NCBI GenBank assembly: GCA_964270895.1 | Contig: OZ185444.1 | Length of the DNA: 64,000 nt | Direction: 5' to 3' (one strand) | Origin: Podarcis filfolensis | Taxonomy: Eukaryota | Shown here: positions 52,560 to 59,159 of the stretch, one piece after another | Layout of the letters: each line of letters begins with the position of its first letter | How positions within the stretch are numbered: position 1 is the first letter of the stretch | Position numbers and translations under genes: made by a program | The notes under the pieces: generated by a model | Told to the model about the DNA's origin: nothing | The model's database searches: none | The model's input: the letters and a program-made list of their open reading frames with translations, nothing else

Positions 52560-53050
52560 TTAAAAGATCGCAATGAGGGACAAAGCATTCATTTTGCATG
52601 TTAATAAACTTATGAAAATTTGATATAACTTTAGGGGAAACAAATATGAAAAAGATATAACAAGAACTAGCAGATCAAGGTTAGGAGCATACAAATTCCA
52701 ATTACAAAAAGGCTCAATTTTACCAGTGAGTGAACTTAGTGTTCAAGGAATTTTGTATGAGTTAGCTACATTTCTTAACTATATGTTTTCATCAAATTCT
52801 GGCCTGCCCAAGATGGAAGACAGTTTTGCTAGAGTCAGCTTAAATGTATCAAATGTGATAATATGTATCGAATCCTGTCAAAGAAAGGAGGTGGTGGTTT
52901 CTTTGTTTTATTAGAAATTGTAATATTGGAACAAGGGCTTGTGGGATATGAAGATAACTTGGGTGAAGTTCTAACAAAATGCCTGGCTGGCATCCAACTA
53001 AGGGATTCTCTAGGAGGCTTAGTTTGGTCAGAATTGAATATACACAAAAT
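52560..53050 (+). mobile_element. Possible highly degraded L1 ORF2 relic
   Basis: Faint peptide echoes (KGSILP; KE-GG) with many stops. Confidence 0.3.
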
Positions 53051-53271
53051 ACATTACTTCTGCTAAATGAGCCACCATAGTCACTAGACGGCTGTGAAAA
53101 TTTTTGTCCTGGGCTTTTTAGACTCGTCTACCCATGTACTCTCTGAAACCAAAGAGGTGCATTGCTTGCCAGATGTGAAATGTATTGACATTATTTTCAG
53201 CTCTCCTACCCAACTAGATGGGGACCTATTTTTCCTCCTACTTACCCGGTATTGGGTAAGATAGTAAATGG

Positions 53272-53639
53272 TGTTAGGATATTTCCGTTCCACCTTAAAA
53301 GGGTGCAGGATGTTTGTATAACACCCTGCGTAAGTTCCTGTCTCACAGGATGTTTATGCTATATGTTCCTTTCGATTTTGTCTGTCTTGCCTGAGCAGTC
53401 GGAGGAGACGGTCATGATTTCTTTGTTCTGACCTACGCTGAATAAAACTGTAAATATGCAGTTCTGCTCTCATGCTGTGCAACTTCTGTTGTGTGAATTC
53501 TGCTGAAAGAGTGTGCTCTAAGCCAGAGGCTTAGTGTCGCTGAATTGCTGATATTGCCTGACTACGGGAGGTCGATGGATCGTCCGGCATCCGAGCTTGG
53601 GGCTCAGATGGACCTTATCTCCCTGGCAGTATCCCAACA
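53272..53639 (+). repeat. 5' LTR (368 bp)
   Basis: Begins TGTTAGGAT and ends ATCCCAACA (8/9 inverted termini); AATAAA at 53441-53446; matches 58037-58404 base for base by eye. Confidence 0.98.
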
Positions 53640-53642
53640 ACA

Positions 53643-53656
53643 GGTTATGGGCCCAG
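53643..53656 (+). promoter_or_regulatory. Primer-binding site complementary to the anticodon arm of initiator tRNA-Met (half-tRNA priming)
   Basis: GGTTATGGGCCCAG, 3 nt after the LTR, is the reverse complement of CTGGGCCCATAACC (nt 26-39 of vertebrate tRNA-iMet). Drosophila copia and yeast Ty5 use this internal priming mode. Confidence 0.92.
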
Positions 53657-53874
53657 ATTCACGGCACTTGCAGGAGAGTAAGGCTGCGACAGACTGCTGA
53701 GGTATGTGTGGGAAAAGCGAAAGTAAAGGCTTTTCTGTTGCCGCGGCAGCCCTTTGATGTCCGGCAAGGCCTAATTGGCCTGGGAGCTGAGCCAAGCAGG
53801 CTTCGTGATTTATGAGAGCCAAGATAAGGAGTCTTTGAAGGCATAAAGGCTCCCGGCTGAAGCAAATAGCTGAG

Positions 53875-56800
53875 ATGGATCTTTTAGAATCCTCTGAAGC
53901 TGCTCCGTGTCCACTAAAGCTAAATGGCCACAACTATCAGACCTGGGCAAGGTACTGTGAGGGCCAGATGAGAAGGCTTGGTGTGTGGAATACTATTTCT
54001 GAGGACCCCCCAGCCCCTGTGACAGATGAATGGAGGGCACAGGACTCGAAAGCCATGGGGGTAATTTTGCTCTCAGTAGCTCCTGAAGAGTTAATCACCC
54101 TGGCTGGCAAGGCCAGTGCCCGTGAGATGTGGGACGGGCTTAGAGCCTGTCATCTCCGACAAGAGGCTGGGTCTGTGTTGCTTTATTTCAGAAAGCTGCA
54201 CAGGAAGCGTTTGGAGCCAGGGGAAGACCTTAGAGCCCACGTTTTACATTTGCAGCATCTCCGACAGGAATTGACTCAGAGAGGTTTCAATATGCCTGAG
54301 TCACTGTTTGCAATTCTCATCCTGGACTCCCTGGATGAAAGCTATCATGCCGTGTCAAGTCAGCTGGCGACCCTCCCTGCGCAAGACCTCACTGCTACAA
54401 AGGTCTTGGCGACTTTGCAAAACGAATACGACAGGAGAAATGCAGCTGAATCGGCTTGTGCGCTTCAGGGGGAGCAATGTGGGACAGCATTCCAGCCTCC
54501 AGGGGGAGCCAAAGCATTGGCAGCTGTGAAGTGCTGGAACTGTGGGAACCAAGGTCATACTCAGAAGTTTTGTCGAAAGACTGGAAATAAACAAAGGAAA
54601 AAGCCTGCAGATGGCCCGAAGCAGAAGGGGAGTGGAAAGCCAGGGAAAAACACGGCTATGTTTGCTGGCACAGCTCCACCAAAGGCTAAAGGCAAGTCTG
54701 ATGGCCAGGAGCAGGGGGGCAAGCTGCAAAAGCCCACGCTGGTGGAAAACAAGGTTTTGTTTGCCAGCAAATCTGCTTCGAAGGGGAAGGCCAGGTTTAT
54801 TGTTGACTCAGGTTGCACGCGCCATCTCAGCAAAGACCGCCATCTGTTTGTCTCCTTCACACCTCAAGATGGAGAGGTCCAGCTGGCTGATGGAAGGACT
54901 TTGCAAGCTACAGGAGTTGGAACTGTGAAACTTGCATGTCTGAATACGACCATTAGCAATGTACTTTTTGTTCCAGGAGCTGCGGACAATTTGCTTAGTG
55001 TCCCACAGCTAAATCGGCGTGGTTTTGAAATTACCTTCAAGAGGACTGTCTGTGTCATCAGAAAAGGCAAAGAGGACATTTTGCATGCAAAGTTGTTGGA
55101 TGGTTTGTTCTGTCTAACTTATGATGATGTTCCTGTTATATCTAATGCTGATACTTGTTGTGTTGCACAAACTAACAAGGTTCTTCATGCAGGTTGCATT
55201 CATGATGCACATCGAAGATTTTGTCACCTCTCTTGGCAAGCGCTAGCCAAGATGCCTGAGTTGGTTGAAGGTTTGGACATCAAACCTTGTAAATTTCACA
55301 TGAAATGTGTATCTTGTGCAGAGAACAAGGTGAAGGTTGCTCCAAAAGGCAAGGAGTCTAGCAGGCAGGCTTCCAAACCCTACCAGTTAGTTCATGCAGA
55401 CCTGGTAGGTCCTCTAGCGCCCTCTTTGGGAGGAGCAAGGTACTTTATGGTTCTAATTGATTCTTTTTCCAGGTACATTCATGTGTTTATGCTCGAGCAG
55501 AAATCGCAAGCATTTCCTAAGTTCAAGGCATTCTGTGCTTGGTTGGAGAATGCTCATGGTAAACGTATTGGCTGTCTGTTTACTGATCGGGGCGGGGAGT
55601 TCACTTCTCAGCAGTTTGAAGCTTTCCTGACTGAGAAGGGAATCCAGCATGACTTGTCAACGCCTAGATCGCCATGGATGAATGGGCTTGCGGAGAGAGC
55701 AAATCAAACGTTGCTGCAAGGCATAAAAACCTTGTTGCATGATGCCAACCTCCCTGAGAAGTTTTGGGGGGAGGCTCTCTCGAATTTTGTTTACACTATT
55801 AATCGCAGACTGTCATCACCTATTGGCTGCACTCCCTATGAGAAAATGTTTGGTAAGAAACCTAACACCAAGCACTTGAGAATCTTTGGTTCTGACATGT
55901 GGGTACACACCCCACAAAGCAACAAGCTTGGGAAGCGTGGGGCACATGGTTTGTTCATGGGGTACGATAAAGGTGCATACAGAGTATGGATGACTAACTC
56001 TAAATCCATAAAATTCACAAGGAGTGTTGAGTACAATCCCAAGTGGGGGGAAAATGTGGGAATTTTCCAGAGTTACCCAGAGGAGGATGAAGGTGATGTG
56101 AAGAAAGCAGATCATGCTGAGAAAGCTGAGGAAACTGAGGATGATGATGATGATGATGATGATGATCAGAGTTCGGATTCCAGTTCAGTGGGCGGCGCTG
56201 CTGCTGCTGTCAGTGACAGTGATGACACAGCAGACTACAAGAGCGCAAAGGCCTCAGTCAGACCATCTGATGCGTCTGACAATGAACTGGAAGAACCACT
56301 GTTCACCATTGGTCACTTTTCTCCTAAGAAGGAGGAGATGAGTCCAGAAGACTTGCGTCTAGTTCGCAGGTCTGAAAGGGCGACCAAAGGCAGACCTCCA
56401 AAGAGATTTGCTGATGAGTTTGCTAAGACGGCAACAGCTGTTCTTAGTAGCTCAGAGAAGGTGTGGGAACCTTCAAGCTTCAAAGAGGTCCAGGAGCTAA
56501 CCTCTAAAGATGCTGAGCCTTGGCTTAATGCCATGAAGGCTGAAGTTGATTCCTTAAACAGGAACCAAACTTGGGAGCTGGTACCGGTAGTCCCAGGGAT
56601 GAGACTGGTTGGCAGCAAATGGGTCTTCAAGGCCAAGACAGACCAGAATGGCAAGGTTGTCAGACACAAAGCCAGGTTGGTTGCCAGAGGTTTTTCACAG
56701 GTACCAGGGCAGGATTACCACGAGACCTACTCACCCACGGTCAAATATGAGAGCATTCGGCTGATGCTCAAGATCGCTGCGGAGGAGAAACTGCATGTTT

Positions 56801-57999
56801 CCCATCATGACATAAATACAGCTTTTTTGTACGGGATTTTGGCGGAGGAGCTGTACATGCTTCCACCTGACGGGATGCAGATACAGAAGGGAATGGTCTG
56901 TAAACTGCGGAAATCCTTATATGGTCTCAAGCAGAGTGCCAGGTGTTGGAACACAAAACTCACTGAAACGTTGCTTTCTCTAGGTTTTCACCAGGGCAAA
57001 GCTGATCCGTGTGTGTTTGTCAAGGAGGAGGGGCAAAACAAACTGTATTGTTTATGTTTTGTTGACGATCTTCTGATGTTTTGGAAGAATCAGGCTTTCT
57101 ACCAAAGCTCCCTAGCTCAGCTGAAGGAGCACTTTGACATGAAGGATCTTGGTGAGGTATCCAACTATCTTTCTCTGCAGGTGGAGAGGGACCAAGCAGG
57201 TAATTTTCTGGTACACCAAACACAGAAAATTGCTGATGTATTAACCAGGTTGAATTTGGTTGATGCAAACCCAGCAGACACACCGATGGTGACAGGTTAC
57301 CAGGTAGACAGTACTGCTGAAGCGTTTTCTGACACAACGCTGTACAGATGCATTCTAGGCAAGTTGAATTTCATTGCTAGATGTTCAAGACCTGACATTG
57401 CTGTAAGCACTAACCTGCTTAGCAGACATGCTAACAATCCTACTGTTCAGGATTGGAAAGCTCTGAAGCGCATAGCCCGGTATTTGAAAGGGACTATGCA
57501 CTACAGGCTGAGGTTCACCAGTCAGAAGACTGGAGGTCTTGAAATCTTTGCAGATGCAAGTTTTGGAAGTGACACCACGGATGGTACAAGCACTTCTGGA
57601 GTATGCTACATGTACAACCACTGCCTGTTTGACTGGTTGTGCAAAAAGCAGACAACAGTTAGCCTAAGTTCCTGTGAAGCAGAACTCAATGCTCTGTCAT
57701 TTTCACTCATGGATTGTGAATGGTTGATGCAACTGTTTAAGGACATTGGGGTTTCTGTGAAATGTCCTATACAAGTGTATCAAGACAATAGATCTTGTTT
57801 GGCTTTGCTGAACTCGGAGAGTTGCAAGCAAAGGACCAAGTACTTGCAGATTAAGCTACATCGTGCAAGAGAGTGTATTCAGAAAGGACTCATTCAGGTG
57901 TCCTACATGCCAGGAAATGAAATTCCTGCTGATCTGTTGTCTAAGGTTGTTAACAGAGAACAACTTAAGGTTTACGCACAAAGGTTGCAATTGGGTTGA
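53875..57999 (+). CDS. gag-pol: Copia Gag-Pol polyprotein, 1374 aa
   Basis: N-terminal LNGHNYQTW gag motif; CCHC knuckle CWNCGNQGHTQKFC (54532-54573); protease FIVDSGC (DSG at 54805); HHCC (HRRFCH...CVSC); integrase HADLVGP/TDRGGEF/NGLAERAN; RT KWVFKAK, DINTAFL and FVDD (57058-57069); RNase H FADAS/SSCEAE/QDN/PADLL. No stops or frameshifts. Confidence 0.98.
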   Translation: MDLLESSEAAPCPLKLNGHNYQTWARYCEGQMRRLGVWNTISEDPPAPVTDEWRAQDSKAMGVILLSVAPEELITLAGKASAREMWDGLRACHLRQEAGSVLLYFRKLHRKRLEPGEDLRAHVLHLQHLRQELTQRGFNMPESLFAILILDSLDESYHAVSSQLATLPAQDLTATKVLATLQNEYDRRNAAESACALQGEQCGTAFQPPGGAKALAAVKCWNCGNQGHTQKFCRKTGNKQRKKPADGPKQKGSGKPGKNTAMFAGTAPPKAKGKSDGQEQGGKLQKPTLVENKVLFASKSASKGKARFIVDSGCTRHLSKDRHLFVSFTPQDGEVQLADGRTLQATGVGTVKLACLNTTISNVLFVPGAADNLLSVPQLNRRGFEITFKRTVCVIRKGKEDILHAKLLDGLFCLTYDDVPVISNADTCCVAQTNKVLHAGCIHDAHRRFCHLSWQALAKMPELVEGLDIKPCKFHMKCVSCAENKVKVAPKGKESSRQASKPYQLVHADLVGPLAPSLGGARYFMVLIDSFSRYIHVFMLEQKSQAFPKFKAFCAWLENAHGKRIGCLFTDRGGEFTSQQFEAFLTEKGIQHDLSTPRSPWMNGLAERANQTLLQGIKTLLHDANLPEKFWGEALSNFVYTINRRLSSPIGCTPYEKMFGKKPNTKHLRIFGSDMWVHTPQSNKLGKRGAHGLFMGYDKGAYRVWMTNSKSIKFTRSVEYNPKWGENVGIFQSYPEEDEGDVKKADHAEKAEETEDDDDDDDDDQSSDSSSVGGAAAAVSDSDDTADYKSAKASVRPSDASDNELEEPLFTIGHFSPKKEEMSPEDLRLVRRSERATKGRPPKRFADEFAKTATAVLSSSEKVWEPSSFKEVQELTSKDAEPWLNAMKAEVDSLNRNQTWELVPVVPGMRLVGSKWVFKAKTDQNGKVVRHKARLVARGFSQVPGQDYHETYSPTVKYESIRLMLKIAAEEKLHVSHHDINTAFLYGILAEELYMLPPDGMQIQKGMVCKLRKSLYGLKQSARCWNTKLTETLLSLGFHQGKADPCVFVKEEGQNKLYCLCFVDDLLMFWKNQAFYQSSLAQLKEHFDMKDLGEVSNYLSLQVERDQAGNFLVHQTQKIADVLTRLNLVDANPADTPMVTGYQVDSTAEAFSDTTLYRCILGKLNFIARCSRPDIAVSTNLLSRHANNPTVQDWKALKRIARYLKGTMHYRLRFTSQKTGGLEIFADASFGSDTTDGTSTSGVCYMYNHCLFDWLCKKQTTVSLSSCEAELNALSFSLMDCEWLMQLFKDIGVSVKCPIQVYQDNRSCLALLNSESCKQRTKYLQIKLHRARECIQKGLIQVSYMPGNEIPADLLSKVVNREQLKVYAQRLQLG

Positions 58000-58023
58000 A
58001 CCACAGGTACTACAGGTTACACG

Positions 58024-58036
58024 GAAAGGGGGAGGA
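58024..58036 (+). promoter_or_regulatory. Polypurine tract
   Basis: GAAAGGGGGAGGA directly abutting the 3' LTR TG. Confidence 0.93.
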
Positions 58037-58404
58037 TGTTAGGATATTTCCGTTCCACCTTAAAAGGGTGCAGGATGTTTGTATAACACCCTGCGTAAGT
58101 TCCTGTCTCACAGGATGTTTATGCTATATGTTCCTTTCGATTTTGTCTGTCTTGCCTGAGCAGTCGGAGGAGACGGTCATGATTTCTTTGTTCTGACCTA
58201 CGCTGAATAAAACTGTAAATATGCAGTTCTGCTCTCATGCTGTGCAACTTCTGTTGTGTGAATTCTGCTGAAAGAGTGTGCTCTAAGCCAGAGGCTTAGT
58301 GTCGCTGAATTGCTGATATTGCCTGACTACGGGAGGTCGATGGATCGTCCGGCATCCGAGCTTGGGGCTCAGATGGACCTTATCTCCCTGGCAGTATCCC
58401 AACA
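58037..58404 (+). repeat. 3' LTR (368 bp)
   Basis: Same sequence as 53272-53639, followed by the TSD AATGG. Confidence 0.98.
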
Positions 58405-59003
58405 AATGGATCTACCAGGTTATACATTGGTGAAAATAATTATTTTTTGGAATGAGGTACCACTTTGGCACTTGTTTTTTTATTCAGGCTGATTGCTGCT
58501 GGTTGATAATTTGCTATCTGGGAATGACATGGGTTTTTTTATATTCCTTATATTCCTTTAACCCAGGGTCTGATTGAGCTTATCTTACACATTCCTTTTA
58601 AAATTGTATTAATGCATCACAACATTGACCAAAACACTAGGGCTTATGTGCAGTTTAAATATTGGTAAATACCGTTACTGAGGACAGAACTCTAGTGTAC
58701 TTCAGCTAGTAGACACAGAAGACACATAAAAGCATAAGGAAATTGAAAATAAAAAGAAATTATTATTAATAATAATAATTTTATTTGTATCCCACCCTCC
58801 CCTTCCGGAGCTGGGCTCAGAGTGGCTAACATCATATAAAACACAATATACATAAAAACAAACAAAAAAACAATTAAAATGCACCCCAAAATTAATTCAA
58901 ATAAATTAAAATTAAAATTAGACTGGACGAATAGCCATCCTCAAGTTAAAATTGAAAGCGGTTAATAATAAACAAAACCAAAACATGCTAGCTTCTATAA
59001 TCT

Positions 59004-59159
59004 NNNNNNNNNNNNNNNNNNNNNNNNNNNNNNNNNNNNNNNNNNNNNNNNNNNNNNNNNNNNNNNNNNNNNNNNNNNNNNNNNNNNNNNNNNNNNNNNN
59101 NNNNNNNNNNNNNNNNNNNNNNNNNNNNNNNNNNNNNNNNNNNNNNNNNNNNNNNNNNN
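59004..59159. other. Assembly gap (156 N)
   Basis: Run of N. Confidence 1.

Follow-up and report, generated by a model that had tools for sequence, protein, structure and literature searches.

The subject of this study is a Ty1/copia retrotransposon at positions 53272..58404 of a 64,000-nt stretch of Podarcis filfolensis DNA (the window, C10:32426001-32490000 of the 1.507-Gb assembly; unless a contig is named, coordinates are positions in it). The element is intact and unfixed and is one of the family members, about one in eight, that carry a whole gag. We propose that this minority, designated type A, probably feeds capsid in trans to a subfamily seven times larger, type B, whose copies lack most of the capsid C-terminal domain (C-domain) and the zinc knuckle and have an intact pol. 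The proposal is built on features that were observed directly: the anatomy of the element, the counts of the two types, the deletion in type B, purifying selection on the type B capsid N-terminal domain (N-domain), the confinement of A/B differences to gag, and priming by nt 1-39 of initiator methionine tRNA (tRNA-iMet). The dominance of capsid-defective, pol-intact copies and the half-tRNA priming were missed in the initial annotation, which considered the window alone.

Exact junctions between the long terminal repeat (LTR) and the primer-binding site (PBS) number at least 351 genome-wide. Sister copies split into two gag types. Type A, to which the window copy conforms, encodes a full capsid and a CCHC knuckle. 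Type B is without 70 codons (aa 94-163, most of the capsid C-domain) and has a degenerate knuckle, its gag still being in frame with pol; its N-terminal part is identical to that of type A at 49-50 of 93 positions. Exact motif searches counted 295 type B matches and 42 type A matches, 10 of the latter in one tandem array; the B deletion junction was matched 266 times. All PBS-anchored copies on C1 (n=29) comprised 5 A, 23 B, and one gag-deleted copy, and the LTRs were identical in 10 of the 28 C1 copies that had both. Examination of 90 loci yielded 79 with two LTRs (18 A, 54 B, and 7 neither). An open reading frame (ORF) of at least 1270 aa was present in 11 of the 18 A copies and 36 of the 54 B copies, and 34 of these 36 B copies kept every pol motif. 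An open ORF, identical LTRs, and an own target-site duplication (TSD) occurred together in 14 of the 54 B copies and in two A copies. We therefore conclude that type B copies are mobile.

Gag of both types was modelled. For A gag, modelled with AlphaFold at pLDDT 90, the best structural match was the capsid of Drosophila copia (E 6e-9 in Foldseek; Z 16.2, root mean square deviation 4.6, and 184 residues aligned in VIA), and the isolated C-terminal domains of Drt2, PEG10, MOAP1, and Arc aligned on aa 97-190. The B deletion begins at the capsid domain boundary and removes four of the five C-domain helices; the model of B gag is folded over aa 1-92 (pLDDT above 90) and disordered afterwards. In the copia capsid, as described in PMC11835246, N-domains lie at the capsomer centre, C-domain contacts lock the periphery, and RNA is needed for assembly. 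Because the deleted domain supplies these periphery contacts and assembly requires RNA, type B is predicted to be unable to form a particle alone. The opposite reading is that type B is autonomous, with its N-domain and the basic repeats behind it forming a particle. Its one open ORF, the N-domain that is folded in the model, the basic 24-aa repeat linker, and its being the commoner type would all fit; however, copia capsids depend on C-domain contacts and nucleocapsid-bound RNA (PMC11835246), and the mixing of A and B pol requires common particles, so that we consider autonomy highly improbable. A search for homologs of B gag found none at E<=1e-5, and representatives gave distant matches only, up to 41%.

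Selection and exchange were analysed in 48 open ORFs (12 A, the window copy included, 20 B1, and 16 B2). The B N-domain is under purifying selection. Among variants shared within type B, 27 were synonymous and 36 non-synonymous (ratio of non-synonymous to synonymous polymorphism, pN/pS, 0.36; p=1e-4), and omega between B1 and B2 was 0.31 (95% confidence interval 0.17-0.55). The ratio was 0.30 inside B1 and 0.19 inside B2, and stood at 0.41 (p=0.005) with the likeliest conversion tract removed. The gag remnant behind the B deletion gave 0.68, which is not significant.

Types A and B were compared along the element. Synonymous divergence (dS) between them was ~1.14 in the gag N-domain versus 0.03-0.06 in reverse transcriptase (RT), RNase H (RH), and integrase (IN), against B1 and B2 alike, which is no higher than within a type. 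Fst was 0.84 in the gag N-domain, with 49 of 183 sites fixed, and -0.02 to 0.00 in protease (PR), IN, RT, RH, and the LTR. None of the 109 informative pol sites was fixed between A and B, and the four-gamete test was failed by 4077 of 5886 site pairs. The differentiated block spans ~53830-54650 (64 copies). At its right edge, between knuckle and protease, lie basic 24-aa repeats (54640-54800) whose number varies by copy; this region is a likely recombination hot spot. Recombination of retroelements occurs between co-packaged RNAs. Since the recombination in pol needs such co-packaging, RNAs of the two types probably end up in the same particles.

Two other explanations were weighed. In the first, labour is divided or the family restrains itself: the B N-domain-Pol protein would be the main enzyme source for A particles, or a dominant-negative brake on assembly like the Ty1 capsid fragments. 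In keeping with this, B pol is as constrained as A pol (IN and RT pN/pS 0.09), the B:A ratio is 7:1, no gag-only A splice product was identified, and yeast has capsid C-domain restriction factors (the Drt2 structure match). Constant exchange with type A explains the constraint on B pol equally well, however, type A has its own intact pol, and a brake is unlikely to be the most amplified form. We regard this explanation as unlikely. In the second, capsid comes from a different copia family, with type A no more than a co-user of the pol pool. The genome does hold a second young family (L184, C1:19.72 Mb; L185, C1:82.02 Mb; L195, C3:60.21 Mb; L196, C3:68.68 Mb), whose RT is 81% identical to that of the window copy and three of whose four copies (L184, L185, and L195) have 1342-aa ORFs with CCHC, identical LTRs, and a perfect PBS. 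Yet the B N-domain is nearer to that of type A (49-50/93) than to that of these copies (32/85 and 35/86), and type B has its LTR, leader, and pol in common with type A and not with them. A donor of this kind is very unlikely.

Our preferred explanation, capsid supplied by type A, would work as follows. Type B would be unable to close a shell or to bind RNA via the knuckle. Its N-domain would serve as an entry tag by which the B polyprotein, and perhaps its RNA too, gets into A capsomers. The RNAs of both types would be co-packaged. Template switching would keep a common pool of LTR and pol, and the 30-40% divergence and the deletion would block A/B exchange inside gag. Tentatively, and with some doubt, we extend this to two ancient gag alleles, a shell-maker and an N-domain-tag cheater, on one recombining LTR-pol backbone, kept as a long-lived, frequency-dependent polymorphism, possibly with a mismatched PBS that escapes silencing by tRNA halves.

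Several points weigh against the supply of capsid by type A. We infer every step in trans (particle, protein, and transposition) from sequence. No strong splice pair that would account for excess A Gag was found after gag, and the second intact family (RT 81% identical) could also lend capsid. The selection seen on the B N-domain could reflect a translation start, protein stability, RNA signals, or short conversion tracts from A (37 of the 51 B-polymorphic sites have an A-identical allele), and codons 67-92 of type B alone gave p=0.056. Pairwise and shared-variant counts are moreover non-independent events. As to sampling, 32 of the 79 two-LTR copies had ORFs under 1270 aa and were excluded before the selection tests, and likeness to the window guided the choice of copies from anywhere but C1 and C4, C1 being the only unbiased sample.

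Two chromosomal accumulations of type A were noted. At C8:14994600-15080800 (L079-L088) there is a tandem array of ~11 older type-A copies, with LTRs 83% identical to those of the window copy, a unit of 7.75-7.87 kb, additional solo LTRs, and most pol frames broken; it may have arisen by satellite-like expansion or may supply Gag or small RNAs. C19, which makes up 2.9% of the genome, holds 9 of 32 dispersed type-A motif matches (p=2e-7). Three gag-deleted copies on C19 have one common TSD, so some of its copies are segmental duplicates. That C19 is a sex chromosome is a guess.

Insertion of the window copy is recent and unfixed, since contigs lacking the element are found in two other samples. 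The contigs were assembled from public sequencing runs, and the evidence was read from their coordinates. X6 (organism C) has a contig of 529 nt that covers 53107-53271 and whose remaining 366 letters do not match the LTR. X2 (organism A, sample S2) has one of 428 nt that covers 58404-58779 and continues into 44 letters that do not match the LTR either. Both are read as empty sites. A right-flank contig of X1 (organism A, S1) begins exactly at 58404, the first base common to filled and empty alleles; this would fit a heterozygote, and X1 may be the source sample. Divergence of the flanks from the window was ~0.5% in organism A and ~1.5-1.7% in B and C. The contigs of X2 and X6 thus support the suggestion of the initial annotation that a live family had inserted here very recently, possibly as a polymorphism. 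The unfixed site and the young family copies are indirect signs of particle formation and of transposition today. The two LTRs of the window copy show no differences in 368 bp (divergence <0.008 at 95%), and among the 40 best LTR matches, none of the other 38 scored as identical to them. Read collapse in the assembly, raised in the initial annotation as another source of identical LTRs, is a bare possibility: LTR differences are carried by 49 of the 79 two-LTR copies in the same assembly, and empty alleles exist, which makes an artefact exceedingly improbable. Short high-copy repeats adjoin the insertion on both sides (53026-53243 and 58652-58900; high contig depth), and the window has an N run at 59004-59159.

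All features of the element are on the plus strand. Its 5' LTR (53272..53639, 368 bp, TG...CA, with AATAAA at 53441) and 3' LTR (58037..58404, the same letters) are flanked by the TSD AATGG (53267..53271 and 58405..58409). A PBS complementary to the tRNA-iMet anticodon arm (gene nt 26-39), of the perfect-match variant, lies at 53643..53656, and a polypurine tract at 58023..58036. The single gag-pol ORF of type A (53875..57999; 1374 aa, P0001) encodes the capsid N-domain (aa 1-93, 53875..54153; the counterpart kept by type B is ~53% identical), the four of five C-domain helices absent from type B (aa 94-163, 54154..54363), the CCHC knuckle (54532..54573; degenerate in type B), protease (54796..55026; Pol_BBD, aa 308-384), integrase (55192..56037; HHCC, DDE core, SH3-like), RT (56563..57291; RVT_2, aa 897-1139), and the RNase H region (57538..57996; four acidic catalytic residues). 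With motif patterns for CCHC, protease, integrase, RT, and RNase H, the catalytic residues were assigned to D311 of protease, D509/D571/E607 of integrase (with HHCC), D979/D1064/D1065 of RT, and D1227/E1268-70/D1304/D1353 of RNase H. Identical 368-bp LTRs, the AATGG TSD, a stop-free ORF, and all the catalytic motifs, which the initial annotation had listed, were each borne out on re-checking. The Pfam domain order is gag_2, Pol_BBD, rve, SH3, RVT_2, with integrase ahead of RT. Assignment to Ty1/copia follows from the gag-PR-IN-RT-RH order with an RVT_2-type RT, the TG...CA LTRs, 5-bp TSD, PBS, and polypurine tract and, in the model, a two-domain copia-type capsid with 8vvw and 8s41 as its best structural matches. 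A scan for host exons gave no Pfam match in any of the 147 ORFs of 29.4-64 kb (the window has 296 ORFs, and the 149 left of 29.4 kb were outside the scan), and no match was found among viral contigs.

Host tRNA-Met(CAT) genes match the PBS, which pairs with the anticodon arm of the tRNA. A longer antisense tRNA stretch had 15 matches in the genome, eight at tRNA gene loci and seven elsewhere. Four of these seven are family copies with the whole antisense half (nt 1-39; in one case 2-40) directly behind the LTR, and three of the four rejoin the leader at short homology. The copied halves are fossils of RT reading through its primer, and they mark the primer 3' end. Because four family copies carry a complete copied 5' half after the LTR, we conclude that priming is by the 5' half of a tRNA-iMet that has been cleaved within its anticodon arm, as in Hemivirus-like elements. 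Antisense tRNA-iMet 5' halves also occur outside the family, at L169 (C1:83.78 Mb), L170 (C1:135.47 Mb), L174 (C2:27.66 Mb), and L154, and stop at the nucleotide where the primer also ends; L154 and L162/L169 have a short upstream sequence in common, with an AATAAA-like signal.

Among the first 100 junctions listed, hand counting gave 65 PBS sites with two anticodon mismatches and 34 perfect ones; the duplex energy is -37.7 for the perfect and -31.7 for the mismatched PBS. The mismatches start just beyond the position modified in eukaryotic tRNA-iMet, which may be the reason they are inherited. That a mismatched PBS evades silencing by tRNA halves is speculation. PBS variant and flanking haplotype were not significantly associated (p 0.08-0.11).

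A 15-nt stretch in the U5 part of the LTR (53568..53582, repeated at 58333-58347) exactly matches in sense the 3' half of host tRNA-iMet (variable loop and T arm), that is, the discarded half of the primer tRNA. It may have been acquired by template-switch capture or conversion. A general function was rejected: the match is weaker in older copies, and the stretch is absent from the other PBS-bearing families examined. A tRNA-like cloverleaf at U5/PBS was also rejected, as the region folds no better than shuffles (z 0.57).

No convincing splice-site pair after gag was found in a consensus scan of the element, and contigs of presumed-RNA runs had no clear GT..AG joint. In the leader (53702-53749), a donor-like GAGGTATGT is followed 48 nt on by a pyrimidine-rich AG, a distance too short for a usual intron. 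Near this candidate, run X19, which is only guessed to be RNA and has no DNA partner, has a joint at 53697-53751 of a kind not seen in DNA runs. Contigs of X15 and X19, both only guessed to be RNA, cover A-type gag and pol, with one B-type loose end.

Relatives were sought at the protein level, with only the top word-sharing candidates scored, in databases where squamate repeats are thin. The closest proteins were P0002, from an ENA contig (70% over RT-RNase H), and one from the lizard Elgaria (60% over half of the query). One identical Logan fragment was found, all other protein matches being at or below 43%, and named non-squamate relatives were at most 41% identical. In an RT tree of 30 rows, which held no reference sequences of the Hydra, Mtanga, and GalEa clades, the window copy, the second intact family (81%), P0002, and Elgaria formed one 100/100 branch, the Elgaria branch being long. 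Older families with the same PBS are also present in the genome; a loose pattern gave 577 matches. The initial annotation had thought horizontal acquisition worth testing, and recent arrival from a non-squamate donor could be argued from the patchy distribution of copia across vertebrates (PMC4350176) and from the origin of P0002, 70% identical over RT-RNase H, in an ENA contig. Neither the protein searches nor the 30-row RT tree support it, within databases that are thin for squamate repeats: against such an arrival stand the low identity of named non-squamate relatives (<=41%), the single 100/100 branch with the sister family, P0002, and Elgaria, and an internal gag divergence of dS 1.1, which suggests long residence. 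We give horizontal arrival hardly any credence. According to PMC4350176, copia is considered ancestral to vertebrates and lost from birds and mammals; its presence in frogs is described in PMC4131045.

For a lizard, a copia that is intact and young is ordinary: such elements have been published in corn snake and Anolis (Copia-6), and a second intact family resides in this genome. What is new is the structure of the family. An intact ORF, identical LTRs, and a full set of catalytic motifs do not amount to autonomy, as most such copies here are not expected to form a shell. If our explanation is true, selection maintains a capsid N-domain by itself as a signal for entry into particles, and dynamics of the defective-interfering kind occur naturally in a vertebrate at a measurable 7:1 ratio. 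Should the extension to two ancient gag alleles hold as well, a producer/cheater polymorphism within one element would be legible in wild lizard genomes. The copied tRNA halves are genomic evidence for the primer cut site in a vertebrate, and unfixed insertions can serve as population markers.

Several known systems resemble this family in part (classification background is given in PMC2774666). Corn snake Copia in OCA2 and CLCN2 is likewise a young polymorphic squamate copia, with ~85 near-identical copies (PMC4657000, PMC11948899), and Anolis Copia-6 is another young one; the corn snake element, likened here by description only, is 5832 bp long, and no gag dimorphism is described in the portions available of those sources. 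Drosophila copia and yeast Ty5 also have a PBS on the tRNA-iMet anticodon arm and half-tRNA priming (PMC5371799), whereas 65 of the first 100 listed lizard PBS sites have two anticodon mismatches. The Drosophila copia capsid (8vvw/8s41) agrees in its fold and in where the two domains meet (aa 90/91 in copia; PMC11835246), but capsid identity is ~20%, and the spliced gag RNA was not identified for the lizard element. Athila non-autonomous families are similar in having ORFs under purifying selection and recombination ties to autonomous elements; they are plant Gypsy elements with the opposite loss, gag being retained and pol lost (PMC2410132).

Closer parallels come from plant elements that depend on the gag of others (further related cases are given in PMC13570524). 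We found no report of a pol-intact copia subfamily that retains the N-domain in a vertebrate, in a literature search that did not extend to subscription journals, Repbase, and Dfam. Rice Tos17 is a mobile copia with pol that relies on the gag of another element, presumably Lullaby; nothing of a gag is left in Tos17, and its identity to this presumed helper is only 57%, whereas pol and LTR of types A and B form one pool (PMC3977881). The nearest match is BARE1/BARE2 of barley, single-ORF copia elements in which a gag-defective, pol-intact subfamily is found in the partner's particles and exceeds the partner in RNA (PMC3735527, PMC9744471). Type B is likewise a mobile subfamily with a defective gag and intact pol. 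In BARE2, however, the start codon of gag is gone and no Gag is made (PMC3735527), whereas type B is not wholly Gag-less, keeping a folded, constrained N-domain in frame; type B also exchanges pol and LTR freely with type A, and its host is a vertebrate. Packaging has been demonstrated for BARE and is inferred from recombination for types A and B. By analogy, type B would be a capsid parasite of type A, as BARE2 is of BARE1, one that likely retains its N-domain to join A particles.

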